Below are positions 20,151 to 61,580 of a stretch of 64,000 nt of DNA, one piece after another (within the stretch, counting starts at the first letter, position 1; every line of letters begins with the position of its first letter). A program made the position numbers and the translations under genes. The notes under the pieces were generated by a model. That model was given only the letters and a program-made list of their open reading frames with translations. It ran no database searches and was not told the origin of the DNA. The stretch spans positions 1,509 through 65,508 of the forward strand of contig DAORAI010000005.1 in the NCBI GenBank assembly GCA_035344075.1. The letters run 5' to 3'. Origin of the DNA: Woeseiaceae bacterium (GTDB taxonomy: Bacteria; Pseudomonadota; Gammaproteobacteria; Steroidobacterales; Woeseiaceae).

Positions 20151-20278
20151 CAGATACTCTGCCCACGGATGATCGAAGGCTCTCTGACACCGCTGCGCGA
20201 CCTCGATCGAAGTCTGGTCTGCGACCCGCCGTTACCGGGAATCTTACCGATGCGCCAGCCGTTCCGCTCCGGAACGGG

Positions 20279-30372: not shown

Positions 30373-31554
30373 TTAGTGCTGATAGCGAAAAAACCAGGTT
30401 GCATGGCGACCGTCCTCGGACGCATGCAGCCAAAAGCCATTGTTAACGGGATCGTATCTGAATCGACCAAAAACATAGCTGCTATCCGTTGGTCGCACGT
30501 CGGGGCGAATGGTTTCCCACTGCTCGGCAGATACGTCGTAGATCCAGATGGTGCCGCCGAAGTAGACTGCCAGAACATCATTCTTCGTGTCGTAAGCCAA
30601 TCCCGGGCCGTTGTTGGATTCCCCATTCGGGCCACTGCCTTTCGGCTGCAAAGATTGCCATCGACGACCGGGGATGTCGAATTCCCATAGAGTATGGTTG
30701 ACCTCGTAATTGCCGCCAAAGTAATACAGCTTGCTGTGTGTGGGATCGTACTCAAGCGTGCCTTCAATGCTCCACGGCGGATTACCTCGCGTTGAAAGTT
30801 TCCGCCAGGTGTTTTTCTTTGGGTCATACGACCAGGTTTCCTGCAACACTTTGGCAAACAGGATCCCATCGCGACTGGAATATGCTGACGCACCGGACCC
30901 GGCAACCTCATTTGGGGATGGGTTTTTGCCGTTGTATAGAAAGGTCCATGCTGCATCGGCGAAATTGAATACCCAGGTATCCATGCAGCGGTTACACCAT
31001 GGTGTTTGCGAGTCACCCCACGTGTAGCCGCCCCATGCCACGGCGCCGTAGCCGTTGACGTACTCCAGTTGATCATAGGAATGGCGTGACATTGGTCTTG
31101 CGTCGGCGATTCCTTCGCCGGCTGGATGGAATAGTGCACCCGGGTAGTTTTCATTGTCATAGTTATTATACGCGCCCTGGTCAGCGCCGTTATACGGCGG
31201 ATCAGTCACCACGTCGGCCGGATACATTTCACGCCATTTCAATGCAGCGATATCGAAGCACCAGACTTCATTGCCCGAATAGTTATAGTGTCCGCCACCG
31301 AATATGCAGAACTGGTGCGCGTCGGGGTCGTACCACCCACCGGAGTACGCCAAAATACCGAGCGGCGCCGTAACGCCTCCCAGGTCCACGAGCATCCACT
31401 TCCTGTCAGGAAGGTCATTAAGAAGGTCTGTTGGCCGATGTTCTGCAACGGCCGGCCCGACGTTCGTGAGCAGCAGCAGCACGGTCCATATCGTGAACCG
31501 GTAACTGATCAGAGTCTTGCTGTTAATGGTCGCCAACTTCGTAGTGAATCGCAT
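30373..31554 (-). CDS. Secreted beta-propeller (Kelch-like) protein
   Basis: Signal peptide '...WTVLLLLTNVGPAVA'. Repeated W/Y-containing blades. Motifs 'AYSGG', 'FGGGHYN' and 'SRHSYDQ' are shared with the N-terminal domain of the 38825-40735 protein. Confidence 0.6.
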   Translation of the reverse strand: MRFTTKLATINSKTLISYRFTIWTVLLLLTNVGPAVAEHRPTDLLNDLPDRKWMLVDLGGVTAPLGILAYSGGWYDPDAHQFCIFGGGHYNYSGNEVWCFDIAALKWREMYPADVVTDPPYNGADQGAYNNYDNENYPGALFHPAGEGIADARPMSRHSYDQLEYVNGYGAVAWGGYTWGDSQTPWCNRCMDTWVFNFADAAWTFLYNGKNPSPNEVAGSGASAYSSRDGILFAKVLQETWSYDPKKNTWRKLSTRGNPPWSIEGTLEYDPTHSKLYYFGGNYEVNHTLWEFDIPGRRWQSLQPKGSGPNGESNNGPGLAYDTKNDVLAVYFGGTIWIYDVSAEQWETIRPDVRPTDSSYVFGRFRYDPVNNGFWLHASEDGRHATWFFRYQH

Positions 31555-33391
31555 GAGCCTTAAACCAAAGTTCCAGAGCCATTAGAACCCAAATAAACTC
31601 GCCATAGTAGTGAGCATTCTCTGAACGATGCAAACGAATCAACTCGTCAAGGTACTCGCGTCGGACAATGTTGCGTTTGCCAATGTCCGAAAGACAATCA
31701 TAGGCGAGTTCCTGCAACGGCTGATGCGATTTCATCCACAAGCCGAATGGCAATCCGAATCCATGCTTGGTCTTGCGAAGGACCTCTCGAGGCAAATAGG
31801 ATCGCATCGAGTGTTTAAAGAAGTGCCGCAGGCGAAATCGGCTAATCTTCATGCCTGCGGGAACGCGATTCGAGAACTCCACGATGTCATCGTCGAGGAA
31901 AGGGAACAGCACGTCTACGCCCGCGAGATCGCACATCGATACAACCTTTCGCAGGTCGTTATCGGCAAGCGTGAACTTCCAGTCAAGTTGTAGCATCCTG
32001 TTGAGCATTGTCGATGCACGTGACGCGAAATACGTTTCCCGTAATGCTTCTACTGGAGACTGCACTCGAATTGAATTCAGAAAATCCGGATGTAATATGT
32101 CGCCAACAGGTGTTCGGTTAAAGTAGTTGTAGGTTTCCAGACGTTCTGGCATAGGCACCTTGGCTTGTTGCACATAACTTTTTAGCTTCCGTGTTGGCAG
32201 GAAGCGGTCGGCGCCCTTCCAACCCAATGCCAATGGCTCGATCACACCGTTTCTGATAATGTGCGGAATTCGATCGTAGATCGAAAAAATTTGTTGGGTT
32301 ACGTAACGCACGTTGCCCCCGAACAATTCGTCTCCGCCGTCACCGCCATACAGGGTTTTAATGCCGTTGCTGCGCGCCATGCGTGCGCAAAAGTACACCG
32401 GAACAACTGATGAATTGCCAAACGGCTCGTCGTACGCCTTCGCAATGTCAGGCAGAATATCGACAACATCCGATGGAGTGACGATGTACTCGTTGTGCTT
32501 TGTTTGAAAATGGTCTGCCGTTATTTTCGCAAAGCTTGTTTCATCGTAGCCTTCCTCCTGAAAGCCGATCGTGAATGTTTTCGCGGGTGGATTCAGTTCC
32601 GACATTACGCCGGATATGGTTGAACTGTCGATCCCACCGCTCAGGAAACATCCGCTGTCTTCATCAGGGGCATGTCTTCGGATCGAGTTGCGCATGAGGT
32701 CATGCAGTTCTTCTTCAAGCAGGCGGCGATCGGCGGGACCGCTGTCAACGAACTCGGGAGACCAGTATTGTCGCTGTGTCAGGTTGCCATCCGCGTAAAC
32801 GATGTACTCACCCGGCCGAAGTTTCTGTTGTTGCTCGAAAATCGATCGAGGGCTGGGAACCATATGAAAATACAGGTAGTCGAATACGGCCTGGTCACTG
32901 ATGCGAGCAGGGAACAGGTTGTCATGATGCAATTGACCTGCGTTGGTTCCGAACACAAGCCCGACCTCTGGACGGCAAGAGAAAAACATCTGTGCGATTC
33001 CCATCCGGTCAATGGCGAGGATGGTGCGCTGTTCGTGGCTGTCGATAAGCGCAAGCGAAAATGTGCCTCGCAAATAACCCAGCATATCGGTGCCGTATCG
33101 GCGACAGGCGCTTGCAATCGATGTGGCGAAGCCTGATTTCCGGCTTTGCTCTTCAAGTTCATCGTTTGCCCAATAGGCTCTGCCGCAAATTGCACCGACA
33201 AGGCCATCGCCACGAATGAGGCATTGTCCTGCCGCGGGCCCGGATATTGCTATTCCGGATGACTCCTGCGCCTCGATGAGTGGTGGCGATGATGCATCCG
33301 TGCCGGGGCGGCCGGACATGCTGCTGAGGCTTTCACGAATGCCCTTTGACGGCGAACTGGTCGTGGCAAGGCCGAGAAACGTGTTTTTCAT
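31523..33391 (-). CDS. Asparagine-synthase-family protein lacking the N-terminal Cys nucleophile
   Basis: The first ATG is at 33391 (the ORF also opens at TTG 33451). PP-loop 'FLSGGIDSSTI' is intact. The glutaminase-like domain is present ('LRGTFSLALIDSHEQRTILAIDRMGIAQMFF'), but no start option gives Met-Cys. Confidence 0.75.
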   Translation of the reverse strand: MKNTFLGLATTSSPSKGIRESLSSMSGRPGTDASSPPLIEAQESSGIAISGPAAGQCLIRGDGLVGAICGRAYWANDELEEQSRKSGFATSIASACRRYGTDMLGYLRGTFSLALIDSHEQRTILAIDRMGIAQMFFSCRPEVGLVFGTNAGQLHHDNLFPARISDQAVFDYLYFHMVPSPRSIFEQQQKLRPGEYIVYADGNLTQRQYWSPEFVDSGPADRRLLEEELHDLMRNSIRRHAPDEDSGCFLSGGIDSSTISGVMSELNPPAKTFTIGFQEEGYDETSFAKITADHFQTKHNEYIVTPSDVVDILPDIAKAYDEPFGNSSVVPVYFCARMARSNGIKTLYGGDGGDELFGGNVRYVTQQIFSIYDRIPHIIRNGVIEPLALGWKGADRFLPTRKLKSYVQQAKVPMPERLETYNYFNRTPVGDILHPDFLNSIRVQSPVEALRETYFASRASTMLNRMLQLDWKFTLADNDLRKVVSMCDLAGVDVLFPFLDDDIVEFSNRVPAGMKISRFRLRHFFKHSMRSYLPREVLRKTKHGFGLPFGLWMKSHQPLQELAYDCLSDIGKRNIVRREYLDELIRLHRSENAHYYGEFIWVLMALELWFKAHAIHYEVGDH

Positions 33392-33804
33392 ATCATCTAA
33401 CCTAAAAAATGCAGTCGAATGCTCCGGCTCGATGCGCAAATTCGCAATCAATTAAGTCACAGATTTGACAATAATGTGATGCGACGAAGGCGATCGGGTT
33501 TGGCTTCCAAATACAGGTTGGTGAGACGTCACCGTGTAAATGGCGTCTCGGGATAGTCCAAGGTTACCGGAAAATCAATGGCTTCAGTGCATTTTCCCAA
33601 ATTGTCTTTAACGATTGAAAAATCGCAGAAGTGTGAACCGGTCGACGTTATTGGAGGCCGCGTCAGCCATAGCGTTCAGCCGATTTTCATGTCTGTATTT
33701 GGAGACAGTTGCAGCATGTTTTTTTTTGTTTATAGTCGTTTTACTGCTTACATAATCGAAGTTGCGCCGAGAACCTTTTAGCGCGTATTTCGAGAAGTGG
33801 ACAG

Positions 33805-33891
33805 CACTGTTTAAAGGCAAACTCATCGAAAGGTGGGGACGCAAAACTACCGGTCTAAGGGAGTCAACCTAAGACGGCGGAGTTGCCAGTG
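33805..33891 (+). promoter_or_regulatory. c-di-GMP class I (GEMM-I) riboswitch aptamer
   Basis: CACTG-tttaaag-GCAAAC[CTCATC-GAAA-GGTGGG]GACGC-AAA-ACT(A)CCG GTCTAAGG-gagtcaa-CCTAAGAC(GG)CGG AGT-tgc-CAGTG. This gives three helices and a GAAA tetraloop. The conserved 'GGCAAAC', 'GGGACGCAAA' and 'GCGGAGTTGCC' strings are near-identical to the V. cholerae Vc2 aptamer as I recall it. Confidence 0.8.
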
Positions 33892-34077
33892 ACGGCCGAT
33901 GCTATCCGTACTTTAACCCGGTGCATCGCCAAGCCTGCCTTCACGTCGTCTAAACAGGATGGTCATAAGCCCACGAGCAGGGCGCTGTCATTCTGTAATG
34001 GAATTGATCGTACTGCCCAATTGGACCGCTTAAGAACAGAACTCAGGCACTGACTTGTGGTTCTCTGGATACACTGG

Positions 34078-36840
34078 ATGCAAAAAATGAAATTGGTGGA
34101 TCTCAAACAACTGGTCTTCTCGTTTAGCGCCATTGTCTGGCTGTTTGCGATTTGTGAATCGGTCAACGCCGCAGACATTGCGTCGGTTTCGATAGATAGC
34201 GAATCGAGCAGCGCCCAGAACAATGTACATGTCACTTTTGGCCACGTCTTCGCTCAGGGCGAGGTCGTGGATCCGGCGGTCCTTGGTGCACGACTGGCGG
34301 GCGGTGCAGTAGTTCCGCTGCAAGTTGATGCCAAAGCAACTCACGCCGACGGCTCGTTGCGACACGCTGTCCTGACAACCGTGCTACCCACCGTCGCTGC
34401 GAATTCGCAGAACGATCTGACACTACAGACGCCGGGCTCAAACGCGACCGGCGCTACAGTTACTCTCGCAAGTTTACTTGCCACGAGTTTTGATTCCGAT
34501 GTATCTGTCAATATTGGTGGCACCGTTTATTCGGCTTCGGCACGAGATTTGCTGAGCAGTGGAACACCCGACAGCTGGTTGTCGGGGCCACTGGTTTCAG
34601 AGTGGCTTGTCGCCGGGCCCATGCGTACGAATGCAGGTTCTCCGCACGCTCATCTAACGGCTCGTTTTCATGTACGTGCCTATGCCGGGCTGGGTGCCGT
34701 TCGTGTGTCGGTTACGCTGGAAAACAACTGGTCGCACGTCAGCGGTCCGCAGAATTTCAACTATGACGCGACGGTCAGCGTGCAGGGTCGTGGCATCGTA
34801 CTGTCGCAAGACAACGTTACTCACTATCGACAGGCGCGATGGCGTCGCGTTTTCTGGTGGGGCGATGAACCGCAGGTCGAAGTTGCGCACGACACCGGTT
34901 ACATGGAGCGTATGGGTGTTGTACCGACCTATGATCCGAGACTTCGCATTCCGCAGAGCGTCCTGAGCGGCATGGCATCGGACTGGAGTGGACGCAAAAC
35001 GGAATTGATGGCTTCCGGGCTTATTTATGAATACATGCCTGACGGTGGAGGGCGGCCAGATATCGCTCCGCTGCCGCGCTGGACAGCCCGATACCTGATG
35101 TCGCAGGACGCCCGGGCAAAAACGGCGGTTCTGGGCACCGGCGAACAAGCGGGCAGTTTCGGCATTCACTATCGCGACAAGGATACGGATCTGCCGATTT
35201 CACTCGATACCTACCCGAACATCAGCATTATGGGCCAGAGCAGCGCGTTCCCGTCATGCGGTGGCAGTTGCAGCACGCCCTATACGCCCGATATTGCGCA
35301 TCAACCATCGATGTCATTCGTTCCCTATCTTGTGACCGGCGACTATTTTCACCTTGAGGAGCTTCAGTTCTGGGCCAACTGGAATTTGTTCTACTGGGGA
35401 AATCATGGCGGAAGCCAGGGCTTGATGGTCAATGACCAGATTCGTGCTCAGGCCTGGGGACTGCGGACGCTTGGACATGCCGCATTTATTACACCCGACA
35501 ACCATCCGCTGAAGGCGTACTTCCTGTCCAAGCTCGACAACAATCTTGACTGGTACGAGAACAACATAGTCAGCAATCCGCCAACTCCGCTCGGTTACCT
35601 GCTGAATACGCCTGATATCGGCCTGGACAATACCTTCGCAACCTGGATGGACGACTTTTTCACCTGGACGGTCGGTCATCTTGTAAACCTTGGATTCGAC
35701 AATGCCGAGGGAATTTTTCAGTACAAGGCACGCTTTCCCGTAGGTCGCATGACCGATCCGGGTTATTGCTGGATTCTTGCACCGACCTACTGGACCCGGG
35801 CACGTGATGCTCAGACGGGCCAGCCTTTTTCCGATTGGACTGACTACAAAGTCGCTGTCGTGCGCTCGTGGGACAGCAGTTCCGTGGGCCCGAGCTTCTC
35901 GTCCTGGACAATTCCGCCAAACATGTCGAGCAGTCAGGAAGACCCACTCATCAATGCGGCCTGCAACAGCAGCGAGATGGCCGATATACTTGGAATGCAG
36001 CGCAGCAACATGATCGGCGGGTCATGGAGTCATGAAGGCTATACGTCGAACATGCAGCCGGCTGTTGCCGTTGCGGCGGAACGACGGGTAACGAATGGCG
36101 AGGCCGCCTGGAACCTGTTTGACAGCCGCGCCGTGGTACCGGATTCAGGTAATTACGATTACAACGTGTCGCCGCAATGGGCAATCGTACCGGGCAATAT
36201 TGACCTCGGTACACCTGGCCCGGGCAACCAGCTGCCAACGGTATCGTTGTCGGCGAATCCGAGATCTATTGCCTCCGGTGGTACGACGACATTGAGCTGG
36301 TCGTCTTCCGACGCGGATTCCTGCCAGGCCTCAGGCGCCTGGAGTGGCAGCAAGTCGTTTTCTGGAACACAGTCAATCGGAGGGCTGACAAGCGACAGCA
36401 CCTTCACGCTGGTTTGCAGCAATTCCCAAGGCAGTGACACGGCAAATGTAACAGTCACGATCCAGGCACCTGGAGCGCCGACAGTTTCGTTTTCGAGCAG
36501 TCTGAGTTCGGTATCTCAGGGCTCCAATGTAACGCTGACCTGGTCATCGCAAAATACCGACTCCTGCTCGGCGTCGGGCGCATGGTCAGGCAACAAGGCG
36601 ACCTCCGGAAGCGAGTCAGTGGGTCCGCTGAGCCAGAACAGCAGTTTCACACTGACCTGTTCGGGTTCCGGAGGTAACGTCAGCGAGAGCCTGAGTGTCA
36701 GCGTCACTGCCACTCCGCCGGATGCGGGCAATCCCGAAGAAGAAGGCGGTGGAGCGATTGGTTACTGGAGTCTGTTGTTTTATCTGTTGGCCGTGTGGCG
36801 TCGCGTACATGGCAGACGGTGTAATGAGGTTTCAGTTTGA
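34078..36840 (+). CDS. Large secreted protein: ~700-aa unassigned (possibly glycan-active) domain + 2 two-Cys Ig-like modules + GlyGly-CTERM-like tail
   Basis: Signal peptide 'MQKMKLVDLKQLVFSFSAIVWLFAICESVNA' (starts at 34057/34078/34087 are possible). The body has no motif I can name. The tail is 'EEEGGGAIGYWSLLFYLLAVWRRVHGRR'. Confidence 0.8.
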   Translation: MQKMKLVDLKQLVFSFSAIVWLFAICESVNAADIASVSIDSESSSAQNNVHVTFGHVFAQGEVVDPAVLGARLAGGAVVPLQVDAKATHADGSLRHAVLTTVLPTVAANSQNDLTLQTPGSNATGATVTLASLLATSFDSDVSVNIGGTVYSASARDLLSSGTPDSWLSGPLVSEWLVAGPMRTNAGSPHAHLTARFHVRAYAGLGAVRVSVTLENNWSHVSGPQNFNYDATVSVQGRGIVLSQDNVTHYRQARWRRVFWWGDEPQVEVAHDTGYMERMGVVPTYDPRLRIPQSVLSGMASDWSGRKTELMASGLIYEYMPDGGGRPDIAPLPRWTARYLMSQDARAKTAVLGTGEQAGSFGIHYRDKDTDLPISLDTYPNISIMGQSSAFPSCGGSCSTPYTPDIAHQPSMSFVPYLVTGDYFHLEELQFWANWNLFYWGNHGGSQGLMVNDQIRAQAWGLRTLGHAAFITPDNHPLKAYFLSKLDNNLDWYENNIVSNPPTPLGYLLNTPDIGLDNTFATWMDDFFTWTVGHLVNLGFDNAEGIFQYKARFPVGRMTDPGYCWILAPTYWTRARDAQTGQPFSDWTDYKVAVVRSWDSSSVGPSFSSWTIPPNMSSSQEDPLINAACNSSEMADILGMQRSNMIGGSWSHEGYTSNMQPAVAVAAERRVTNGEAAWNLFDSRAVVPDSGNYDYNVSPQWAIVPGNIDLGTPGPGNQLPTVSLSANPRSIASGGTTTLSWSSSDADSCQASGAWSGSKSFSGTQSIGGLTSDSTFTLVCSNSQGSDTANVTVTIQAPGAPTVSFSSSLSSVSQGSNVTLTWSSQNTDSCSASGAWSGNKATSGSESVGPLSQNSSFTLTCSGSGGNVSESLSVSVTATPPDAGNPEEEGGGAIGYWSLLFYLLAVWRRVHGRRCNEVSV
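36238..36711 (+). repeat. Coding repeat: two ~80-aa two-Cys Ig-like modules
   Basis: 'TTTLSWSSSDADSCQASGAWSGSKSFSGTQSIGGLTSDSTFTLVCSNSQG' and 'NVTLTWSSQNTDSCSASGAWSGNKATSGSESVGPLSQNSSFTLTCSGSGG'. Confidence 0.8.
36745..36840 (+). other. GlyGly-CTERM-like sorting tail
   Basis: GGG, then hydrophobic 'AIGYWSLLFYLLAVW', then basic 'RRVHGRR'. Confidence 0.6.
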
Positions 36841-38828
36841 TGCGTAACAACATCGCAAGATGGAAGAGGTGGTCGGTCCTCGCGTTGATTCCGACCGTAT
36901 TGTCTGGCTGCCTGAGCGAAGAGAAAGCATCGGTCGAAGACAATCCTGAAGCGCCGGTCGTGTCGATCAACGCGGTACCCTCGACAGTTGACCCGGGCGA
37001 TACAACGACATTGAGCTGGGACGCCACAGGCGCAGACAGCTGTACTGCATCGGGCGCGTGGAGCGGCAGCCGTACATTGACGGGCACAGAGACATCCGGT
37101 CCCTTGCAATCGAGCAGCCAATTCACGCTGACCTGTACGGGGCCCGGTGGCAGCACGAGTCAAACGGCAGCGGTAACGGTCAGTGGTGGGGCTGCGCAAC
37201 CGACGCTGACGTTTACGGCATCGCCCAGCGTAGTCGCGCAGGGAGCCGCGGCGACACTTCAATGGACCACCACGAACGTCGATAGCTGCACCGCATCGGG
37301 TGACTGGACAGGAAACAAGGGAACGTCTGGGTCGGAGTCGACGGGAAGCCTGAATAGCAACGCGACCTATACGCTCGATTGCGTCGGTCCGGGTGGCACT
37401 ATTGGCAACACGCGAACGGTAACAGTGGCGGCCGGGTCTGCCGGAATTTTCGGCAGTGTTGACAGCAGCCTGGTAAGCAGAACGCTATCGAACAGCGTCT
37501 ACCTGTACGCGGGAGCCGTTACTCCCGACGACTTTGACGGCGATTCGGGTGATCCCTTGCTAAGTGCCACAGTCCGTCAGGACAGCGGAGCCTGTACGTT
37601 CGGCTACGACGCAGGCTCGCTGGCGGCAGGCGAATACACGCTGGCCTTCGTAGCTGGTAGCTCCAATGACGACCCGCAAACTGACGAGGTGATCGACTTT
37701 GTTGGCACGCAGACGGTTACTGTCGGCGCGAGTCCGACAGTTGCGAACTTCGACGCCTCCAATATTATTCGCGTCGGCCCAGGCCGCACTTATCAAACCG
37801 TTGCAGCCGCGGCAAATGCGGCTCAAGACGGTGATGTCGTTGAAATTGACGCCGGCGTTTACGCAGCGGATGTTGCGAGCTGGTTTCAGGACAACCTCAC
37901 GCTTCGCGGCGTCGGCGGGTACGCGCACCTGCGCGCAGATGGCGTCAATGCGCAAGGGAAGGCCATCTGGGTAATCGCGGGCAACGACGTGGTTGTTGAG
38001 AATATCGAGTTCTCCGAGATCTCAGTGCCGGATCAGAATGGCGCTGGAATAAGGCATGACGGGCGGAATCTTGTCGTGTGTAACGGTTACTTCCATGACA
38101 GCGAGGAAGGCATTCTGGGTGGTGCCGGAAACGTGCTCGTGGAGTACTCGGAATTCGACAATAACGGTTTTGGTGATGGCTTCAGCCACAACATGTACAT
38201 ACTTGATGCAGACCGGTTCACATTGCGTCATAGCTATATGCACCATGCCCGCATTGGCCACAACGTCAAAAGCCGAGCTCGCGAAAACTACATCTTGTAC
38301 AACAGGATAATGGACGAGTCGAATGGCACGTCCAGTTATGCTGTCGATATACCGAATGGTGGCTTGAGCTACCTGATTGGCAACCTGATGCAGCAGGGGC
38401 CAAATACGGACAACTCGGTCATCGTCAACTATGGCACCGAAGGCCTGTCGGGCGGCCGTACGCACAACCTGTATCTCGTGAACAATACGCTGGTCGATGA
38501 CTACGGCGGCACGTTCTTGCAGGCCGCTGGCGGTACCGCACTGATAGAACTGATCAACAACCTGTTCGTTGGCGGTGGCAACATTATCAGTGGGCCGCAA
38601 GCAAACATGACGACAAACCTGCAAACAACTGCTCCGGAGTTTGTCGCGATCGATTCTTACAATTACCGCCTTACCGGAAACTCGCCTGCCCGCGATGCAG
38701 GCAGCACACCGGGCACCGGCAACGGCTTTGATCTGCACCCTGAGTTTCAGTACCTGCACAAGAGTGACAGGGAATCGCGCCCGGTGGAGGGCGCAATCGA
38801 TGTCGGCGCGTATGAGTTTACGCCATGA
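36840..38828 (+). CDS. Lipoprotein: 2 two-Cys Ig-like modules + beta-sandwich + right-handed parallel beta-helix (polysaccharide lyase/epimerase-like) domain
   Basis: TGATG overlap with the upstream gene. Lipobox 'VLSGC'. The beta-helix part, 'DGDVVEIDAGVYA...LTLRGVGG...AIWVI.GNDVVVENIEFS...NGAGIRHDG.NL.V..GYFHDSEEGIL...EYSEFDNNGFGDGFSHNMYI...HHARIGHNVKSRA', is paralogous to 45870-46955. Confidence 0.8.
   Translation: MRNNIARWKRWSVLALIPTVLSGCLSEEKASVEDNPEAPVVSINAVPSTVDPGDTTTLSWDATGADSCTASGAWSGSRTLTGTETSGPLQSSSQFTLTCTGPGGSTSQTAAVTVSGGAAQPTLTFTASPSVVAQGAAATLQWTTTNVDSCTASGDWTGNKGTSGSESTGSLNSNATYTLDCVGPGGTIGNTRTVTVAAGSAGIFGSVDSSLVSRTLSNSVYLYAGAVTPDDFDGDSGDPLLSATVRQDSGACTFGYDAGSLAAGEYTLAFVAGSSNDDPQTDEVIDFVGTQTVTVGASPTVANFDASNIIRVGPGRTYQTVAAAANAAQDGDVVEIDAGVYAADVASWFQDNLTLRGVGGYAHLRADGVNAQGKAIWVIAGNDVVVENIEFSEISVPDQNGAGIRHDGRNLVVCNGYFHDSEEGILGGAGNVLVEYSEFDNNGFGDGFSHNMYILDADRFTLRHSYMHHARIGHNVKSRARENYILYNRIMDESNGTSSYAVDIPNGGLSYLIGNLMQQGPNTDNSVIVNYGTEGLSGGRTHNLYLVNNTLVDDYGGTFLQAAGGTALIELINNLFVGGGNIISGPQANMTTNLQTTAPEFVAIDSYNYRLTGNSPARDAGSTPGTGNGFDLHPEFQYLHKSDRESRPVEGAIDVGAYEFTP
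36957..37433 (+). repeat. Coding repeat: two two-Cys Ig-like modules
   Basis: 'TTTLSWDATGADSCTASGAWSGSRTLTGTETSGPLQSSSQFTLTCTGPGG' and 'AATLQWTTTNVDSCTASGDWTGNKGTSGSESTGSLNSNATYTLDCVGPGG'. Confidence 0.8.
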
Positions 38829-40735
38829 AACAAGGCCGTACGCTAAAGTTGAACCAAGAGGTTGACCCAATGAATAGAACAGTCTTTGAACGTCATAAGG
38901 ATATGATGACAGAGAAACCGCCAGGCAACAGCCTGCCGTTGACCGCTTGCCTGCTGCTGGCCGGTATCTTTTCCGCGGCGGTTGCCAACGCCCAGGGCAA
39001 TGAAACCAGTCCGTTTATCGACAGTATCGCTGTTGGGTCAGCCTGGCAGAATGTCACGGCGAATGAGGGCAATAACCTCAGAATCGACTATCAGACCGTA
39101 GCGTATTCGGGTGGTGGCACCAAGAATGGCCGGACTGTCGTCTTCGGCGGCGGACATAACAATGGTTTGAATGACGCCGTCGCGTTTCTTGATTGGCGCA
39201 ATTTCGAGACCGTCGGCTGGACAGAAGAGTTGGTATCGACGGCCGACCATATCGGTGTCGCCGATAATGACTGGGGCCAAATCGGCCAGTATCTGAACGC
39301 AAACTACAATGGCGCGACCCCGGGAGGAATCTCCGACGATCGTGGCCTGGTGGCGTTGTCTCGACACACCTATGATCAGATAGTCGTACGATCGGATCAC
39401 TTCTATATTTTCTCCGGCATCCTGCCGTATGACAATCCCGGGCAACCCAATGAACCCTGGGATCATGTAGAGGGCGATATCTGGCGCTATGACTTCGGCT
39501 CCGGCTGGAGCTTTATTGGCGCGCCGCTGGCAAACCAGTATGGCGGGCATGCGGCAGCGGCTGAAGATACATTGACCGGCAATATCTGGGTGCACGACGG
39601 TGCCGGGCTGCGTCTTTTCAATACGACGTCGGAGACGGTCAGTTCGCCGATCGCGTCTTTGAGTTCGCAAGCGGAGGAGTCGTCTTTGAATTTTAATCCG
39701 GACAAAGGCGCACAGGGCACCTTGTTCGGGTCCGGACGTTTCGCAGGTAGTAGCTGGCACGAGTACGACATTGCAACGGGCCAGCAGCGCAACATGGGTG
39801 CTGTTCCCGGCAATGCTGAAAGCACGTATATCATCTACGTTGACGCCTCATTCGGATCGAATTACGGCACCTATTTCGCGATCGTTCCGCAGAACGGGAC
39901 TCTCCGGCGCTGGAATGGGTCCGGTTGGGATACGGTTGCAACCGGTGGTCCAACAGGTAACGGGCACGTTTACGGCCGCGCCGGGTTTGAACCCGTCCAT
40001 CAGGTGTTCTACTGGATACACAATTCGTACAGTGGCAATAATGCCTGGCAAACACGCGTGGTTCGTCCGTATCCATTCAATGGCAGCGCTGAGCCGCCTC
40101 CGACGGTCGCATTGTCTGCGGACCCGGAGTCCGTGCCAGCACAGGGGACGACCACTTTGACGTGGAGCAGCACGAACGCCAATAGTTGCAATGCGTCCGG
40201 AGACTGGAGCGGCGCCAAACCATTGTCAGGCAGCGCATTTTTCGGGCCATTGAACTCGGACAAGACATATTCACTGGCCTGTAGCGGCAGTGGCGGAACC
40301 TCTTCAGATACGGTGACTGTCACGATTCAGGGTACGCAGCCTGCTCCGACTGTCAGTATTTCGGCCAATCCGTCATCTGTCGATGCAGGTGGATTTGCCG
40401 TTGTGGACTGGACCTCGTCAAACGCCAGCAGTTGCTCGGCATTCGGTGACTGGTCCGGAAACAAGCCGCTGCAGGGCAGCGAGTCGGTTGGCCCACTGTC
40501 GCAGGATTCGACTTTCCGAATGACGTGTTCGGGCACGGGCGGCGATGCAACCAATGCAGCGACCATTACTGTGAATACTCCTGCGCCGCCGCCGCCACCA
40601 CCACCGCCCGTTGACGATAATCCGACGACCGACCCCCAGAACCAAATCGGTGGTGGTTCCTTCGGTTTGCTGTTCTTGCTGATGCTTGCGACCCTGGGGC
40701 TTTTCAGGCAGACGGTGATCGATCGCCGACGATAG
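38825..40735 (+). CDS. Secreted beta-propeller-like domain + 2 two-Cys Ig-like modules + poly-Pro linker + GlyGly-CTERM-like tail
   Basis: ATGA overlap with the upstream gene (internal ATG 38870 is an alternative start). Signal peptide '...LTACLLLAGIFSAAVANA'. 'AYSGGG', 'FGGGHNN' and 'SRHTYDQ' are shared with 30373-31554. The tail is 'GGGSFGLLFLLMLATLGLFRQTVIDRRR'. Confidence 0.8.
   Translation: MKQGRTLKLNQEVDPMNRTVFERHKDMMTEKPPGNSLPLTACLLLAGIFSAAVANAQGNETSPFIDSIAVGSAWQNVTANEGNNLRIDYQTVAYSGGGTKNGRTVVFGGGHNNGLNDAVAFLDWRNFETVGWTEELVSTADHIGVADNDWGQIGQYLNANYNGATPGGISDDRGLVALSRHTYDQIVVRSDHFYIFSGILPYDNPGQPNEPWDHVEGDIWRYDFGSGWSFIGAPLANQYGGHAAAAEDTLTGNIWVHDGAGLRLFNTTSETVSSPIASLSSQAEESSLNFNPDKGAQGTLFGSGRFAGSSWHEYDIATGQQRNMGAVPGNAESTYIIYVDASFGSNYGTYFAIVPQNGTLRRWNGSGWDTVATGGPTGNGHVYGRAGFEPVHQVFYWIHNSYSGNNAWQTRVVRPYPFNGSAEPPPTVALSADPESVPAQGTTTLTWSSTNANSCNASGDWSGAKPLSGSAFFGPLNSDKTYSLACSGSGGTSSDTVTVTIQGTQPAPTVSISANPSSVDAGGFAVVDWTSSNASSCSAFGDWSGNKPLQGSESVGPLSQDSTFRMTCSGTGGDATNAATITVNTPAPPPPPPPPVDDNPTTDPQNQIGGGSFGLLFLLMLATLGLFRQTVIDRRR
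40103..40580 (+). repeat. Coding repeat: two two-Cys Ig-like modules
   Basis: 'TTTLTWSSTNANSCNASGDWSGAKPLSGSAFFGPLNSDKTYSLACSGSGG' and 'FAVVDWTSSNASSCSAFGDWSGNKPLQGSESVGPLSQDSTFRMTCSGTGG'. Confidence 0.8.
40649..40735 (+). other. GlyGly-CTERM-like sorting tail
   Basis: The ggt ggt ggt codons at 40649-40657 are followed by 'SFGLLFLLMLATLGLF' and a terminal 'RRR'. The tail is preceded by a P8 linker. Confidence 0.65.
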
Positions 40736-40800: not shown

Positions 40801-42138
40801 TTAGGGAAGACTGCGTTTCTCATCCTGGGCGAAAACGCCGCCCTCCTGCGGAATGCTTTCGTCAGCCGCGATATTCACCCTCGCACCTGGTTCAGGCTCT
40901 CTTGCGACCTCCTGTTCCGCCCGGAAGCGCATCAGTATGACTATTGCGATCAAGTGATAGTAAAGATCGAAATAGGCCAGCCCGAGAAAAGCGCCCCCGA
41001 CCGCGTAGCCGATAATACTGACCTGGATCATTGACGACAGGTTATGTATCCATCGCAATGACTCTCGATTTTTCGATAGTTTCGCAATTTTTCTGCCATT
41101 TTGCAGTGTTACCAGGCCGAGCAACAGGTATATCGCCAGACCGACAAATCCATGCTCCGCCAACACTTCGAAATAAATGCTGTGGGCGTCATGAAAATCA
41201 TCCGGTACCGGTGCATAGGTTTGAAAGAGCTCCGGAAGAAAGGTATCGAATCCGCCTCCGAAAACCGGGTATTCCTTGGCAAGGTTGATCGCAAACCGCC
41301 AGGCATTAATACGTCCCATGGCCGACGCATCCATCTCGTAGTTTTGAATGGTTGCCATTCGTTCTTCCCATTTTTGAGGGATGAATGCGGCCGCGATTAT
41401 TCCCAGTACAACGAGTACAACGCCGATACGAAATTTGTTCTTGCTCTTCAGGATTAGAGACAGCGCCATGGCCGATCCGGCCAGAAACGCGCCACGTGAA
41501 TATGACCCGATTATCGAAACCGAGACCAACAACATCGAGACAATAAGCCCCATGCGAACCCAGCGGTGTTGTGTTTCCAGCTGCAGGTAGCGCATCAGCG
41601 GTAGTGTCATGACCAGCGCGAAAGCAATTTCGTTGTTGCCTGTGATATGAGTCATCGGCGGGCCCCAGACCAGGTAGTTTCCGCCCGTCACAAGCGTGAA
41701 AAGCCCTCCCTTAACGCCGTAAAACCCAATCGATACAACGATCACCCAGACCAGGTTATTAATTCGGGCATGGGTTTTCATTACCATGATGGTTGCGAGA
41801 ACCATCATCTGAATCTTCAGTGTTCGTTCCAACTCCCAGGCGCTGTGGGAGCTGTCGATTGCCATGAAGGTGGTCATGCACATCCACAGGACCCAGATAA
41901 GCCACAAGGTCGTCAATGCATTGAAGGGGATTTTCTTCGGCTCTTTCGAAAAGAAAAGGCCTAAAATAAGACTCGCAGCGACAATCTGCGAAAACGGGAA
42001 GTTGTAGGCAAACCCCCAGGTAAGCCGGTGTGGATTCATGTATCCGAGCCACGACCACATTAGTACACCAATACTTGGGCGCATCAGAATGAATGGCACG
42101 CTGCCAAATACAATAAGTGTTATTAGTAAGTCCCGCAT
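40801..42138 (-). CDS. O-antigen ligase/polymerase-like membrane protein (exosortase-A-associated O-glycosylation ligase type)
   Basis: 445 aa, about 11 TM helices. 'MRDLLITLIVFGSVPFILMRPSIGVLMWSWLGYMNPHRLTWGF' N-terminus and a Wzy_C-like loop 'SYSRGAFLAGSAMAL'. Confidence 0.7.
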   Translation of the reverse strand: MRDLLITLIVFGSVPFILMRPSIGVLMWSWLGYMNPHRLTWGFAYNFPFSQIVAASLILGLFFSKEPKKIPFNALTTLWLIWVLWMCMTTFMAIDSSHSAWELERTLKIQMMVLATIMVMKTHARINNLVWVIVVSIGFYGVKGGLFTLVTGGNYLVWGPPMTHITGNNEIAFALVMTLPLMRYLQLETQHRWVRMGLIVSMLLVSVSIIGSYSRGAFLAGSAMALSLILKSKNKFRIGVVLVVLGIIAAAFIPQKWEERMATIQNYEMDASAMGRINAWRFAINLAKEYPVFGGGFDTFLPELFQTYAPVPDDFHDAHSIYFEVLAEHGFVGLAIYLLLGLVTLQNGRKIAKLSKNRESLRWIHNLSSMIQVSIIGYAVGGAFLGLAYFDLYYHLIAIVILMRFRAEQEVAREPEPGARVNIAADESIPQEGGVFAQDEKRSLP

Positions 42139-42147
42139 TGGCCCTCG

Positions 42148-43083
42148 CTACCGCTTCGCGCGGTATGCTCTTGCAATAAGCTTGAATAATTGCTCATTCT
42201 CCGCCACGGCAACCAGCCTGGTTGCAAAAGCCTCCTGAGAAGTGCGCCCAAGTGTCCAGCTTCGATGGTATTGCTGAACGAGAGTGTACGACATGATTGC
42301 ATCCACAATATCGGCCGGAATTTCGAGCTGGCGAAAGTAGCCGACTGTGTTCGCTGCGATGAAATCGATTGATCGCCGCAATAACCGCGTTTCGCCATTC
42401 TCGAGATTGCAGACATCGAAAACGAGGCTGAACAAATCATAGCCCGGCAACTTGATGTCGCCAAAATCCTCCCAATCCAGAAAATAGATTCGTTGTCCCC
42501 TTGCGAGAATATTATCGAAATAGAGATCGCCATGTTGCGAAATCTCAGGTAGAGGGAACTGCAGAAGTGATTGCGCGTGCTTCGCTGCAAGCTCATTGTA
42601 GTAGTCGGCAACGCTCGCCGGCAATGGAGTATCGTAAAGTCCGGAAAACGGCTTCAGGTAATCATCAGATTTGATTGTCGCAGCGCCAGATTGCGATCGC
42701 AGTGTCGTATGCAGTTCTGCGAGTTGTCGAGTAACGAGTTTCAGCTTTCTTGATTTTGCGCGGTAGCTGCTCAACCTGTTGGCAGCAATAGGCGCTGTGC
42801 AAAGCACGAAAAATTCCCTGGTCTGGTCAAAGAACAGCGGTGCCGCCGCCAGACCAGGACAGACTTTGTGAACGCATTGCAGGTTTTCATACTCGCGGGC
42901 AAGCACGGGACGGTTGCGGCTCAGTTTCAGAACGGCAAAGGGTGAGCTTGATGCTGTATCAAATAGAAACAGCAGGATGCTCCCTTCTGTGAGGTCGTAG
43001 TTGTTATAGAGGAGTACTCTGGCCGCTGTCATTCCCAGGTGTTTCTCGGTCAGAATTTCGATTTCACTTGCGAGCCGAGTCAT
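42148..43083 (-). CDS. APH/choline-kinase-fold phosphotransferase
   Basis: 'AVLKLSRN' (beta3 Lys), catalytic loop 'SQHGDLYFDNIL', metal-binding 'YFLDWEDFG'. Confidence 0.7.
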   Translation of the reverse strand: MTRLASEIEILTEKHLGMTAARVLLYNNYDLTEGSILLFLFDTASSSPFAVLKLSRNRPVLAREYENLQCVHKVCPGLAAAPLFFDQTREFFVLCTAPIAANRLSSYRAKSRKLKLVTRQLAELHTTLRSQSGAATIKSDDYLKPFSGLYDTPLPASVADYYNELAAKHAQSLLQFPLPEISQHGDLYFDNILARGQRIYFLDWEDFGDIKLPGYDLFSLVFDVCNLENGETRLLRRSIDFIAANTVGYFRQLEIPADIVDAIMSYTLVQQYHRSWTLGRTSQEAFATRLVAVAENEQLFKLIARAYRAKR

Positions 43084-45869: not shown

Positions 45870-46955
45870 ATGAACAGAACGCTTTTGCTCCTGGCATCAC
45901 TAGTTGCGGAATCGGCGTATTCCGCCGTATTGCTCGTCGGTCCGAACATGCCGTATGAATTACCGAGTGAGGCCGCGATGGTCGCAGAGGATGGGGATAT
46001 TGTCGAGATTGAGGCGACTGTCTATGCCGGCGACGCTGCCGTTTGGACACAAAACGACCTGGTGATTCGGGGTGTTGGCGGCAGGCCTCACATCAGGGCC
46101 GATGGGGCCGCTGCCGAGGGCAAAGCGATATGGGTGATCAAAGGCGACAACACGGTCATCGAGAACATTGAGATGTCGGGCGCGACCGTAGCCGACGCAA
46201 ATGGTGCCGGTATTCGACTTGAGGGCACGAATCTTACGGTCCGAGGCTGCTATTTTCACGACAATGAAAACGGGATTTTGACGGGCCCGAATCCGGACAG
46301 TGAGGTATTGATTGAGTACTCTGAATTCGCGAATAACGGTTACGGCGATGGGTACTCCCATAATATGTATATAGGCCGTGTGGCAAAGTTTACTTTGCAG
46401 TTCAGCTACGTCCACCATGCCCGTATCGGGCACCAGGTAAAAAGCCGGGCAGTGAAGAACGAAATTCGCTTCAACCGGCTGATGGATGAACGAAGCGGTA
46501 CGTCAAGCTACATCATCGATCTTCCCGATCCGGGCGAGGCCTTCGTCGTCGGCAACGAAATGCAGCAGGGTCCGGATGCGGACAACTGGGCCATGGTGCA
46601 CTCGGCACAGGATCTGCAACTGGTGAACAATACGCTCGTGAACGATCGTAGCAGCGGTGTGTTCGTCACGTTGTCGGGCCCGAGTCGATCAAGCGTCCTG
46701 CAGAATAATTTGTTTATAGGCACCGGCAGGTTCGAGGCGGAGGGCGCAGAAATGCGGGGCAACCTGGTGATTGACGACGGGAAGCTCGCAGACCGTCGGG
46801 GGTTCGACTACAGGCTAACGGCTGCTTCGCCAGCGATCGACACCGGAACACCCGTTGATCCGACCGCACAATTGCTCTGGGAGTACGAGCACGTCGCCAG
46901 CCGCAAAGAGAGGGAAGACGGTGGACAGGTCGACGTTGGCGCACACTCCTACTGA
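45870..46955 (+). CDS. Secreted right-handed parallel beta-helix protein (paralogue of the C-terminal domain of 36840-38828)
   Basis: Signal peptide 'MNRTLLLLASLVAESAYS'. 'DGDIVEIEATVYAGD...LVIRGVGGRPHIRADGAAAEGKAIWVIKGDNTVIENIEMS...NGAGIRLEGTNLTVRGCYFHDNENGIL...EYSEFANNGYGDGYSHNMYI...HHARIGHQVKSRA'. Confidence 0.8.
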   Translation: MNRTLLLLASLVAESAYSAVLLVGPNMPYELPSEAAMVAEDGDIVEIEATVYAGDAAVWTQNDLVIRGVGGRPHIRADGAAAEGKAIWVIKGDNTVIENIEMSGATVADANGAGIRLEGTNLTVRGCYFHDNENGILTGPNPDSEVLIEYSEFANNGYGDGYSHNMYIGRVAKFTLQFSYVHHARIGHQVKSRAVKNEIRFNRLMDERSGTSSYIIDLPDPGEAFVVGNEMQQGPDADNWAMVHSAQDLQLVNNTLVNDRSSGVFVTLSGPSRSSVLQNNLFIGTGRFEAEGAEMRGNLVIDDGKLADRRGFDYRLTAASPAIDTGTPVDPTAQLLWEYEHVASRKEREDGGQVDVGAHSY

Positions 46956-54292: not shown

Positions 54293-54457
54293 ACTGTGGC
54301 GCAGTTCCGATTCCAAGTGTGCAGCAGTTCCACACCTTGCCGACCGTGTCTGTGCGATAATTCGCGCGCCAAACGATTATGAGAAGCCTGTGGCCGGTGG
54401 AAACCGCCTGCAGCCGGATTTGTGTTGAACTGTGCCTGTCGAGTCGAAGGAAGACGA

Positions 54458-56463: not shown

Positions 56464-56493
56464 AATCCAGAAAGTAGTTACAAGGTAGATAAT

Positions 56494-56784
56494 ATGCAGC
56501 AAGAAATCGTTGAATTGATCATTAAAACGGCAAAAGAGCTTGGTGACGAAGAGTTGTCGCTTTCGCAGGAGTTGAACGCAGACACTCAGCTCTTTGGAAA
56601 GGACGGTGTCCTCGACTCCATGGGCCTCGTAACGCTTATCATTGCGGTCGAGCAGGCGATTGAAGACCGATACGAGGTATCTGTTGCACTCGCCGACGAG
56701 AAGGCCCTGTCCCAAGCGCGGAGTCCGTATCGTTCAGTTACCCGACTTGCAGAGTACGCTGCAGGCCAGATGCAGGACACCTAG
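56494..56784 (+). CDS. Acyl/peptidyl carrier protein
   Basis: 96 aa with the phosphopantetheine-attachment motif 'GVLDSMGLVTLI'. Confidence 0.8.
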   Translation: MQQEIVELIIKTAKELGDEELSLSQELNADTQLFGKDGVLDSMGLVTLIIAVEQAIEDRYEVSVALADEKALSQARSPYRSVTRLAEYAAGQMQDT

Positions 56785-56787
56785 ACA

Positions 56788-60282: not shown

Positions 60283-60286
60283 TGCG

Positions 60287-61429: not shown

Positions 61430-61580
61430 TTCGGAACAAAATCGTGCGACATGTCCTACTTTCCGGGCTGCGAGTTGCTATTGTGGCGGGAATGTCTTGT
61501 CGCCATAGACAAGGTGAAGCGACAATTGGACGTGTCGGTGTAGATCCTTAACTTTTCGAATAAAACGGTCGGTGAGCACA

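Follow-up and report, generated by a model that had tools for sequence, protein, structure and literature searches.

What does a c-di-GMP riboswitch control when the three genes behind it encode anchored, multidomain surface proteins and the genes around them belong to an exopolysaccharide (EPS) locus? We addressed this question in a 64,000-nucleotide stretch of DNA (the window) from a Woeseiaceae-like genome of a marine-sediment bacterium, the Woeseiaceae being among the most abundant bacteria of marine sediments. The riboswitch and the three genes, here called A, B and C, are a genuine, uncharacterized unit, presumably for handling sugar polymers, because the trio recurs in related bacteria, at times as a single fused protein. 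A preliminary description of this DNA, made from the letters alone, had held that no operon of this composition was described, and after literature searches this still holds. We place just on the probable side the reading that A-B-C is a c-di-GMP-riboswitch-controlled accessory module of an XrtA/PEP-CTERM EPS locus, whose products would act jointly on one polysaccharide.

The c-di-GMP-I (GEMM-I) aptamer proposed to precede the trio was recovered at 33806-33890 on the forward strand by Rfam model RF01051 with 77.4 bits, far over the gathering score of 35 (E 1.7e-13, model positions 1-87 of 87). About 50 nt upstream lies a sigma-70-like promoter candidate, TTTATA-16-CATAAT (33729-33756, forward strand), with 9 of 12 matches in a consensus scan only. 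Aptamer homologues were found 5' of A orthologues in eight further loci (L079, L080, L081, L082, L004, L005, L006 and L095; the L080 copy is cut by the contig end), in which the identity of A ranges from 81% down to about 49%. The aptamer helices covary between loci, most clearly in the first hairpin, the GAAA-tetraloop stem (CTCATC/GGTGGG versus CCTGTC/GACAGG versus CCCGCC/GGCGGG), and a structure model built from the copies themselves gave every one of them 83-104 bits. GEMM-Ib aptamers have 3'3'-cGAMP as their ligand and other variant classes exist; as we align the copies, G and A occupy the places of Vc2 G20 and A47, which presumably assigns the aptamer to the c-di-GMP type. The L081 copy scored best with the variant model RF03167. 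The riboswitch is missing from the syntenic locus L083 and from distant loci carrying A, indicating that c-di-GMP control is a feature of a clade and not intrinsic to the module.

The leader, or expression platform (33891-34086, forward strand), has at 33936-33941 the sequence TGCCTT, which can pair with the 5' strand of P1 in the aptamer, and RNAalifold analysis of the window, L079 and L081 paired AAGGCA with this downstream UGCCUU as a candidate anti-P1 element. A hairpin at about 33955-33995 was kept in all three leaders, mostly by invariant pairs with a few two-sided changes, and is not followed by a U-tract. No terminator-like site was detected in 33891-34086, neither a canonical terminator nor a Shine-Dalgarno-sequestering helix was recognized in the leader, and folding of the leaders of other loci gave no common structural solution.

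Genes A (34087-36840), B (36840-38828) and C (38870-40735) are co-oriented on the forward strand and tightly packed 3' of the aptamer. From the aptamer end to A there are 187 nt if the ATG at 34078 is used or 196 nt to the ATG at 34087, which is conserved in L079 and is the start in the database gene call P0001. The TGATG overlap of A and B at 36838-36842 was confirmed, and the stop/start overlap is kept in five of five syntenic loci. At the B/C junction the ATGA motif described at 38825-38828 is present and supplies an alternative in-frame ATG at 38825, but it is probably not where C starts in practice: the working start is most likely 38870, because the NCBI call P0241 (621 aa) begins there and a Shine-Dalgarno motif (AGAGG) and ATG are conserved at that place. 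Both are retained in L079, where no ATG coincides with the B stop, and the distance from the B stop to the C start is 41 nt in L079, L081 and L083. This gap and the separate Shine-Dalgarno motif, together with a few promoter-like hexamers within the genes, are what might be expected if A alone were riboswitch-regulated and B and C were independent neighbors. Such an arrangement seems very improbable, however, since the promoter-like matches within the operon are at chance level in a consensus scan (6 versus 3.9+/-2.2), since the scan found no terminator between A, B and C beyond chance-level sites (10 terminator-like sites in the operon versus 7.9+/-3.1), since the A/B overlap persists in all syntenic loci and since A-B and A-propeller fusions occur behind the same riboswitch. 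The aptamer, the junctions and the conserved A/B overlap bear out a riboswitch-led, translationally packed three-gene unit.

Gene A encodes 917 residues with a signal peptide (34087-34170), a large three-part domain (up to about 36222), two Ig-like modules (36235-36465 and 36478-36705) and a GlyGly-CTERM-like tail (about 36739-36837). The structure prediction and Foldseek search suggested earlier for its unassigned domain of about 700 residues gave a high-confidence AF2 model (residues 1-712, pLDDT 92.7, pTM 0.92) with a lyase fold like that of PcRGLX. The best PDB match was this PL26 exo-rhamnogalacturonan lyase (5xqg/5xq3, E 1.8e-9, probability 1.0) and the top 13 matches were all PcRGLX chains (E 1.8e-9 to 1e-6), at TM 0.27-0.36 (0.33 for the best match), an rmsd of about 14 Å and about 10% identity; GH38, GH88, GH105 and YteR came next, and the fold of A includes an (alpha/alpha)6-type region, as in the GH88, GH105 and YteR enzymes. 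As modeled, A shares the overall fold and the domain order of PcRGLX. The first PcRGLX Pfam domain, PF19501, was matched by A with 19.4-19.8 bits, under the gathering score of 22.1, and by 37 of 50 A-family members at E <= 0.01; a Pfam search gave no match to the second and third domains in A or its relatives. No PDB sequence was matched by A with phmmer or by the family profile with hmmsearch at E <= 10. With no PDB sequence match and PF19501 below threshold, A was rejected as a sequence member of PL26. Its homologues number more than 1000, every one named hypothetical, and 37 residues of A are invariant, with Arg, His, Trp, Tyr, Glu and Asp prominent among them.

Gene B encodes 662 residues with a lipoprotein signal, two Ig-like modules (36954-37181 and 37200-37427), an unassigned domain of about 100 residues and a right-handed beta-helix (about 37740-38825). 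Its N-terminus, MRNNIARWKRWSVLALIPTVLSGC, fits the lipobox [LVI][ASTVI][GAS]C, with LSGC at 36900-36911; the lipobox cysteine is nearly invariant in the family and most orthologues fit the pattern. Although B itself has no Pfam match, PF13229 (Beta_helix) was matched by 9 of 39 homologues (best 2e-9) and the choice-of-anchor Q model, a C-terminal cap, by 23 of 39. The helix domain is also 48% identical over 364 aa (E 1e-107) to a paralogue, B' (45870-46955, forward strand), a secreted beta-helix protein outside the riboswitch operon, with a short signal peptide and neither Ig modules nor lipobox, which matches PF13229 at 2.5e-14, over the gathering score, and has a homologue in L081. The earlier assignment of B as a beta-helix protein is upheld by these homologues and the paralogue, as far as sequence comparison can carry it.

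The 621-aa product of C is composed of a signal peptide, a propeller (38990-40114), two Ig-like modules (40100-40330 and 40346-40576), a Pro-rich linker and a GlyGly-CTERM tail. The database protein identical to it, P0241, bears the NCBI name 'GlyGly-CTERM sorting domain-containing protein [Woeseiaceae bacterium]'. The propeller first proposed is predicted by the AF2 model (pLDDT 86.6, pTM 0.89) to be six-bladed, four-stranded and of the Kelch type: among 409 PDB matches at E <= 0.001, Kelch domains (KLHL12, KEAP1) lead with E 5e-9 and TM 0.5-0.65, even though C itself has no Pfam Kelch match. The nearest folds were those of Kelch interaction or lectin propellers rather than of a known lyase propeller. 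Outside the riboswitch operon lies K (30373-31554, reverse strand), a secreted Kelch propeller that has neither Ig modules nor an anchor; it matches PF24681 at 2e-16, is a distant homologue of C (24.6% identity over 346 aa, E 4e-10) and belongs to the same locus toolkit.

The two copies per protein of one two-Cys Ig-like module, as originally described, were all found: six ungapped copies of about 81 aa, 40-53% identical in pairs, with no further copy anywhere in the 64-kb window. In A, B and C they stand between the functional domain and the anchor. Each of the three proteins is predicted to leave the cytoplasm and remain attached to the cell, as the preliminary description had it: the tail of C scores over the TIGR03501 GlyGly-CTERM cut-off (17.5 versus 15.5), B has its lipobox, and the tail of A falls just below that cut-off (13.9 versus 15.5) and is matched in its tail region by rhom_dep_M36 (NF038111) at E 2.7e-5. 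The tails of orthologues share a GGG-TM-RR pattern and the anchors are conserved in them. From these tails A and C are predicted to be rhombosortase substrates; no rhombosortase gene was found among the scanned ORFs of the window, all but about a dozen (those at 16152-21103 and 54422-63644). XrtA cargo status was rejected for A, B and C, which gave no PEP-CTERM model match and have no PEP motif in their tails; judged by these motifs and models, the three are neighbors of the XrtA/PEP-CTERM system and not its sorted substrates. The anchors also predict that the products are kept on the cell rather than released.

This architecture could also be that of a matrix scaffold or adhesin, with A, B and C acting mainly as non-catalytic, tethered glycan binders that hold EPS, cells or particles and are made at high c-di-GMP; Bap1 and RbmC of Vibrio cholerae, both beta-propeller lectins, and the Pseudomonas beta-helix adhesin CdrA organize matrices. 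The similarity of C to Kelch interaction domains, the retention of all three proteins on Ig-like stalks, the aptamer that would put the trio under c-di-GMP control and the presence of the same Ig-like module in many long repetitive proteins, labeled adhesins by JGI, all agree with such a role. We nonetheless consider it unlikely, because the lyase fold of A is enzyme-like, contains an (alpha/alpha)6 region and keeps many charged and aromatic residues invariant over 700 aa and across phyla, because the helix of B carries strongly conserved polar motifs in the family alignment and because the same module is joined elsewhere to bona fide enzyme domains (GH5, DUF4038/GH140-like and SGNH).

Enzymatic or not, the trio sits in a canonical, full XrtA/PEP-CTERM EPS locus comprising PrsK, FemAB, PrsT, an export protein, stp1, XrtA-EpsI, stp2, an amidotransferase, an O-ligase-like protein and Wzx. 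The XrtA genes said to flank it form a complete marker set, all nine exosortase A markers exceeding their own cut-offs (PrsK 626 bits, FemAB 434, PrsT 582, export protein 237, stp1 502, XrtA 298, stp2 472, amidotransferase 1038 and PEP_O_lig_1 531). L079-L083 all preserve the order A-B-C within the EPS locus. The module is placed between a divergent Asn-synthase-like gene and, according to the locus, the O-ligase-like gene or Wzx in the window, L079, L081 and L082, and in L080 and L083 it again adjoins Wzx. The domains also travel together beyond this clade. Of 78 GTDB loci, 16 have a B-type helix at most 10 kb from A, Massilia and Noviherbaspirillum among them, and K-type Kelch propellers directly adjoin A homologues in many distant loci from many phyla. 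Natural fusions join A with B (P0024) and an A-like domain with the C propeller (P0275, P0277 and P0281), and in L004 a 2620-aa ORF directly behind the riboswitch strings together a Kelch motif, Ig modules, A, Ig modules and B. With the PcRGLX-like fold modeled for A and this coupling and fusion of A, B and propeller, the glycan-active role first suggested for the trio is better founded, on predicted structures and gene neighborhoods.

The glycan in question might also be exogenous, for instance an acidic algal or detrital polysaccharide of the sediment, with the trio attacking or binding it for foraging or colonization and c-di-GMP coupling its production to surface-attached life; the Vc1 riboswitch of V. 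cholerae, which governs the chitin-binding protein GbpA, is a model for this. In favor of this, the enzyme nearest to A in structure degrades pectin as an exo-lyase, foraging enzymes are typically anchored at the cell surface, and 38 of 61 long A-carrying GTDB loci in other taxa have no EPS marker within 10 kb, against 23 of 61 that do (raw counts, with no background rate). Around the module itself, however, there are no adjacent transporter, TonB receptor or sugar catabolism genes, the locus also contains paralogues of B and C that lack the stalk, and the module keeps its place in the EPS locus from the window to L079, L081 and L082 and beside Wzx in L080 and L083, all of which makes foraging quite unlikely here.

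If A-B-C is instead the accessory module of its own EPS locus, its operation may be pictured as follows. The leader aptamer is predicted to bind c-di-GMP, and P1 closure, in competition with the alternative pairing to the downstream UGCCUU, would set the level of full-length or translatable A-B-C mRNA. A and B would be translationally coupled through their overlapping stop and start, and C would be translated after the 41-nt gap from its own Shine-Dalgarno motif. After export the proteins would stay at the cell envelope, through GlyGly-CTERM tails in A and C and a lipoprotein anchor in B, with the paired disulfide-type Ig-like modules as a stalk between anchor and functional domain. We infer that the lyase-fold domain of A, the beta-helix of B and the Kelch propeller of C work together on one polysaccharide, the most likely substrate being the acidic EPS from the surrounding genes, which could be cut, trimmed, modified or bound at the cell surface.

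As to the polarity of the switch, we lean slightly towards expression at high c-di-GMP, along with matrix production. The converse would be an OFF switch, the enzymes being made as c-di-GMP falls, degrading the matrix and freeing the cells. ON and OFF c-di-GMP-I riboswitches are both established, Cd1 of Clostridioides difficile being of the OFF type, a lyase-like protein such as A could well serve to break down the matrix, and the P1 5' strand has an alternative pairing. Dispersal nevertheless appears rather unlikely: the enzymes are tethered to the producing cell and not released, no ligand-dependent terminator was found in the leader, and in Methylophaga, where c-di-GMP riboswitches precede genes for exosortase-sorted proteins within an EPS region, three of the four riboswitch-led transcripts of that region were higher in biofilm (PMC12530212).

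Through this locus, c-di-GMP can be tied in a concrete, testable way to a set of accessory enzymes of the XrtA/PEP-CTERM EPS system, which is still poorly understood. A represents a large uncharacterized family with a polysaccharide-lyase-like fold, whose partners and natural fusions point to a multi-enzyme unit; if activity were confirmed, it could become a CAZy-type family and a tool for dissecting exosortase-linked EPS. A bolder proposal, which we think doubtful, is that A is the founder of a new, widespread polysaccharide-lyase-type family (>575 species) and forms, with its beta-helix and Kelch partners, a c-di-GMP-switched surface EPS-remodeling machine in Woeseiaceae/Steroidobacterales; this would be the first riboswitch control of post-polymerization EPS processing in an exosortase system. 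The succession of anchor, two Ig stalks and catalytic head would be a tidy example of Gram-negative enzyme display, with two anchoring routes in one operon.

Among known systems, the c-di-GMP-I regulons include Vc1/gbpA and Vc2/tfoY of V. cholerae and Cd1/flgB of C. difficile, with which the present operon shares the aptamer family in the 5' leader and the extracytoplasmic surface or matrix cargo. The EPS region of Methylophaga nitratireducenticrescens GP59, with riboswitches ahead of PEP-CTERM and VPLPA-CTERM protein genes, provides a precedent for the regulatory idea, its switches likewise lying within an exosortase-type EPS region (PMC12530212). Unlike in the known c-di-GMP-I regulons, the cargo here is an enzyme-like three-gene operon with GlyGly-CTERM and lipoprotein anchors, not PEP-CTERM, and the expression platform is not a recognizable terminator.

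EPS operons are also known to carry processing enzymes, such as the lyase AlgL and the beta-helix C5-epimerase AlgG for alginate, PelA, PslG and BcsZ. Here too glycan-active-looking proteins lie in the polymer's own locus, with a beta-helix beside a lyase-fold protein, but those enzymes are periplasmic and share the operon promoter, whereas A, B and C stand on Ig stalks at the cell surface and have their own riboswitch and a Kelch propeller as third partner; sequence and profile searches detected no relationship of A, B or C to the AlgL, AlgG, PelA, PslG and BcsZ families. The likeness of A to PcRGLX, an N-terminal RIFT barrel (PF19501) followed by a beta-sandwich and a helical toroid-like region, is one of fold level at the identity and TM score given above. 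GlyGly-CTERM/rhombosortase cargo includes VesB of V. cholerae and rhombosortase-dependent M36 peptidases; A and C have the same C-terminal Gly-rich motif, TM helix and basic cluster, but in the libraries searched, domains like theirs are not otherwise seen with this sorting signal. C resembles Bap1 and RbmC, which bind VPS, as a beta-propeller protein tied to EPS and c-di-GMP signaling, although those propellers are eight-bladed and that of C is six-bladed, of Kelch type and membrane-tethered. Regulons of c-di-GMP riboswitches and processing enzymes within EPS loci are both themes already known, and the A-B-C operon is a variant on both.

Genes A (34087-36840), B (36840-38828) and C (38870-40735), all on the forward strand, lie between a divergent Asn-synthase-like gene and an O-ligase-like gene, and their flanks form a textbook XrtA/PEP-CTERM exopolysaccharide (EPS) locus. 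The upstream flank encodes PrsK, a FemAB-like protein, PrsT, an export protein, stp1, an XrtA-EpsI fusion, stp2, the system amidotransferase, GT4 enzymes and a deacetylase, and the downstream flank an exosortase-A-associated O-ligase-like protein, Wzx and sugar-nucleotide enzymes. Also within the EPS locus are a lipase or alpha/beta-hydrolase-like protein (2658-3557, forward strand), a PMT_2-type glycosyltransferase (5733-7451, reverse strand) and an APH-like kinase (42148-43083, reverse strand). The divergent neighbour, a second Asn-synthase-like amidotransferase (31523-33451, reverse strand) oriented away from the riboswitch, matched TIGR03108 with 277 bits, below the cut-off of 817; it was retained in the comparison loci L079, L081, L082 and L083, with a weaker match in L004-L006. 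Recent horizontal insertion of the module was considered and rejected, its GC content (0.54-0.61) being just slightly higher than that of the flanks (0.50-0.54) and its position being conserved in relatives.

A full-length c-di-GMP-I aptamer at 33806-33890 of the forward strand (Rfam, 77.4 bits against a gathering score of 35, E 1.7e-13), the sole Rfam match across the 64-kb window, precedes the three co-oriented ORFs, in agreement with the preliminary description. The distance of about 185 nt given there between aptamer and gene A fits a non-conserved ATG at 34078; the most likely start is ATG 34087, which is that of an identical database protein (P0001, 917 aa), is kept in locus L079 (81% identical) and gives 196 nt. 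The TGATG overlap proposed for the A/B junction (36838-36842) was confirmed, and a stop/start overlap is retained there in all five syntenic loci. At the B/C junction the ATGA motif (38825-38828) is present, although probably not as the start of C, which probably lies at 38870: an identical NCBI protein (P0241) has 621 aa, an AGAGG-N8-ATG arrangement ahead of C is conserved with L079, where no ATG occurs at the B stop, and C begins 41 nt past B in L079, L081 and L083. Promoter-like and terminator-like motifs do occur within the unit, as they might if A, B and C were independent genes, and were no commoner than in shuffled sequence; the gene that follows C (40801-42138, reverse strand) is convergent. 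The unit therefore comprises three genes, and their independence is very improbable.

Orthologous A-B-C operons were found in L079, L080, L081, L082 and L083, with A identities from 81% down to 59% and all within EPS loci. The aptamer precedes A in L079, L080 (where the contig end cuts it), L081 and L082 and also, among more distant Gammaproteobacteria, in L004, L005, L006 and L095, the last being the sole further riboswitch locus among the metagenome matches listed, which were mostly distant A relatives. Our own covariance model R1, which is narrow enough for very divergent aptamers to escape it, detected no aptamer near A in the sampled Burkholderiales, Myxococcota, Anaerolineae and other A loci, and Rfam at the gathering threshold agreed on six of them. 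Regular-expression matches to GEMM-I in L057 and L041 were false positives on inspection. In L083 (9325-10000) the syntenic operon, with an A 59% identical, is preceded by a 677-nt upstream region without a detectable riboswitch, as if the c-di-GMP input had been lost or replaced in one lineage; an apparent degenerate aptamer in the alignment was rejected, as Rfam at E <= 10 found none. The L081 aptamer (9726-9810), about 90% identical to that of the window, scored best with RF03167 (c-di-GMP-I-GGC, 65.8 bits against 59) rather than RF01051; the ligand preferences of the aptamers in this clade might repay closer study.

Downstream of the aptamer, a UGCCUU element (33936-33941) is complementary to the 5' strand of aptamer helix P1 and is followed by a long hairpin (about 33955-33995) without a U-tract, both being kept in the window, L079 and L081. 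The ability of UGCCUU to pair with the P1 5' strand, together with the hairpin after it, suggests a conformational switch, and the two may belong to a non-classical expression platform: c-di-GMP binding would close P1, and UGCCUU would alternatively pair with its 5' strand. Neither a U-tract terminator nor an SD-sequestering helix was evident in any leader, and when five leaders were folded by MFE and consensus prediction to assign polarity, no shared structure of either type emerged. Control might act on Rho-dependent termination, on translation or on the stability of the RNA. We weakly favour expression of the operon at high c-di-GMP, because its products stay on the producer cell; the opposite polarity, in which an OFF-switch would make the operon a dispersal unit, seems somewhat less likely.

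The ~700-aa domain of A, for which structure prediction and a Foldseek search had been proposed, was modelled with AlphaFold2 (residues 1-712, from a 50-sequence alignment) with high confidence (pLDDT 92.7, pTM 0.92). PcRGLX, the PL26 exo-rhamnogalacturonan lyase, accounted for the top 13 PDB matches (best E 1.8e-9, probability 1.0), with an identity of just ~10% and a TM of ~0.33, followed by GH38 N-domains and then by the (alpha/alpha)6 enzymes GH88, GH105 and YteR. Invariant residues of A include R197, E212, N213, H246, R251, R363, H405, Y414, E424, R453, R460 and D523. The only match at the sequence level was the N-terminal RIFT barrel PF19501, under the Pfam cut-off in the window protein and matched by 37 of 50 relatives at E <= 0.01. 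PDB sequence searches with A, B, C and family profiles returned nothing usable, and for A there was no match even with the family profile. Given this weak sequence signal and the low-identity fold match, A is not a PL26 member and, judging from the model, is a distinct family with a predicted PcRGLX-like architecture. The family is large and essentially unannotated: the protein search returned more than 1000 matches, and 575 loci were confirmed across GTDB species genomes. Against the viral structure library BFVD, the A model matched two uncharacterised phage-metagenome proteins, A0A6J5SAL0 (E 2e-17, TMt 0.69 over 447 columns) and A0A516M318 (E 7e-9, full length), which might represent depolymerase-like relatives from phages or contamination from bacteria and are uninformative on function.

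B itself had no Pfam match, but 9 of its 39 homologues matched PF13229 (Beta_helix) and 23 of 39 a choice-of-anchor Q cap. A secreted paralogue, B' (45870-46955, forward strand), is 48% identical to B over 364 aa and matched PF13229 at 2.5e-14; it has a short signal peptide and lacks Ig-like modules and a lipobox. A homologue of B' was also present in L081 (18650-19756). The right-handed beta-helix first proposed for B therefore appears sound from these sequence relationships, although it is silent on activity; many lyases, hydrolases and C5-epimerases share the beta-helix fold. The beta-propeller attributed to C was likewise recovered, its N-terminal domain modelling as six blades (pLDDT 86.6) with Kelch domains as the nearest PDB relatives (TM 0.5-0.65). 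Outside the riboswitch operon, a secreted Kelch-propeller paralogue, K (30373-31554, reverse strand; PF24681 at 2e-16), is a distant homologue of C (E 4e-10) without Ig-like modules or an anchor.

Each of the three proteins carries two copies of the same 81-aa two-Cys module, as had been noted, at residues ~714-878 of A, 36-201 of B and 408-573 of C. The six ungapped copies share 40-53% pairwise identity, are seen only marginally by Pfam (as DUF5979 or a PKD-like domain) and have no further copies in the rest of the window. The modules stand between the anchor and the large domain in all three proteins, C-terminally in A and C and N-terminally in B, and each pair would thus form a stalk. The predicted soluble heads span residues 29-712 of A, 196-662 of B and 42-415 of C. 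Of the anchors read from the sequence at the outset, the lipobox of B (LSGC) is classical and conserved among family members and the GlyGly-CTERM tail of C lies above the TIGR03501 cut-off (17.5 against 15.5), while that of A falls just under it (13.9) and aligns with the tail of rhombosortase-dependent M36 peptidases; the GGG-TM-RR pattern is maintained in orthologue tails. A homologues from other lineages (P0030, P0032, P0034 and P0044) bear a T9SS Por secretion tail (PF18962) in place of GlyGly-CTERM, so the A domain is an extracellular domain of the 'choice-of-anchor' type. None of A, B and C has a PEP-CTERM signal and they are therefore not XrtA cargo, an assignment considered for A and C and rejected; the true cargo of the locus is likely a 1252-aa protein with six choice-of-anchor Z repeats (7680-11438, forward strand, 549 bits) and an EDSAP-1-type PEP-CTERM protein (11577-12305, forward strand). 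Anchored proteins with such stalks might also be read as a non-catalytic matrix or adhesin scaffold, which we consider unlikely beside the enzyme structures that the A model resembles.

The strongest argument for A, B and C as one functional unit comes from natural fusions. P0024 is an A+B fusion, in P0275, P0277 and P0281 an A-like domain is fused to the C propeller, and in L004 (7572-15676) an aptamer (83 bits) is followed, 156 nt on, by one 2620-aa ORF encoding in a single frame a Kelch motif, Ig modules, A, Ig modules and B. L004 has another A copy downstream of this ORF (18695-20701), and L005, L006 and L095 look similar. The link between the three head domains extends well outside the clade: 16 of 78 GTDB loci have a B-type helix no more than 10 kb from A, directly downstream of it in Massilia and Noviherbaspirillum, and K-type propellers adjoin A in Acidiferrobacterales, Myxococcota, Anaerolineales, Lysobacterales and others. 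By raw count, A homologues also tend to lie near EPS genes, 23 of 61 long loci having one or more EPS markers within 10 kb. Foraging by the trio on external glycans, for which the remaining A loci might leave room, seems quite improbable alongside the EPS setting of all five orthologous operons.

We infer instead that the lyase-like A, the beta-helix B and the propeller C would act jointly on the EPS of the locus at the cell surface, with C possibly serving as a binding or specificity subunit. B and C each have a stalk-less paralogue at another site in the locus, which suggests that beta-helix and propeller activities are core to the EPS system, of which the riboswitch operon would supply a surface-displayed, c-di-GMP-tuned version plus A.

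The preliminary description knew of no operon of such composition, and our literature searches, which covered exosortase, GlyGly-CTERM or Woeseia in combination with c-di-GMP riboswitches, found no description of the A-B-C operon, of a function for the A family or of an A/beta-helix/Kelch trio. Riboswitches of the c-di-GMP-I class are well known upstream of surface and matrix genes, and it is classical for an EPS locus to encode its own lyase, epimerase or hydrolase, as with AlgL, AlgG, PelA, PslG and BcsZ. In the EPS region of Methylophaga GP59, c-di-GMP riboswitches are reported to precede genes for PEP-CTERM and VPLPA-CTERM proteins, mostly upregulated in biofilm (2025, PMC12530212). The A-B-C operon is thus a solid and well-conserved feature that is not categorically new, and its main interest is that it opens a way into an uncharacterised enzyme family and into the control of exosortase-type EPS by c-di-GMP.
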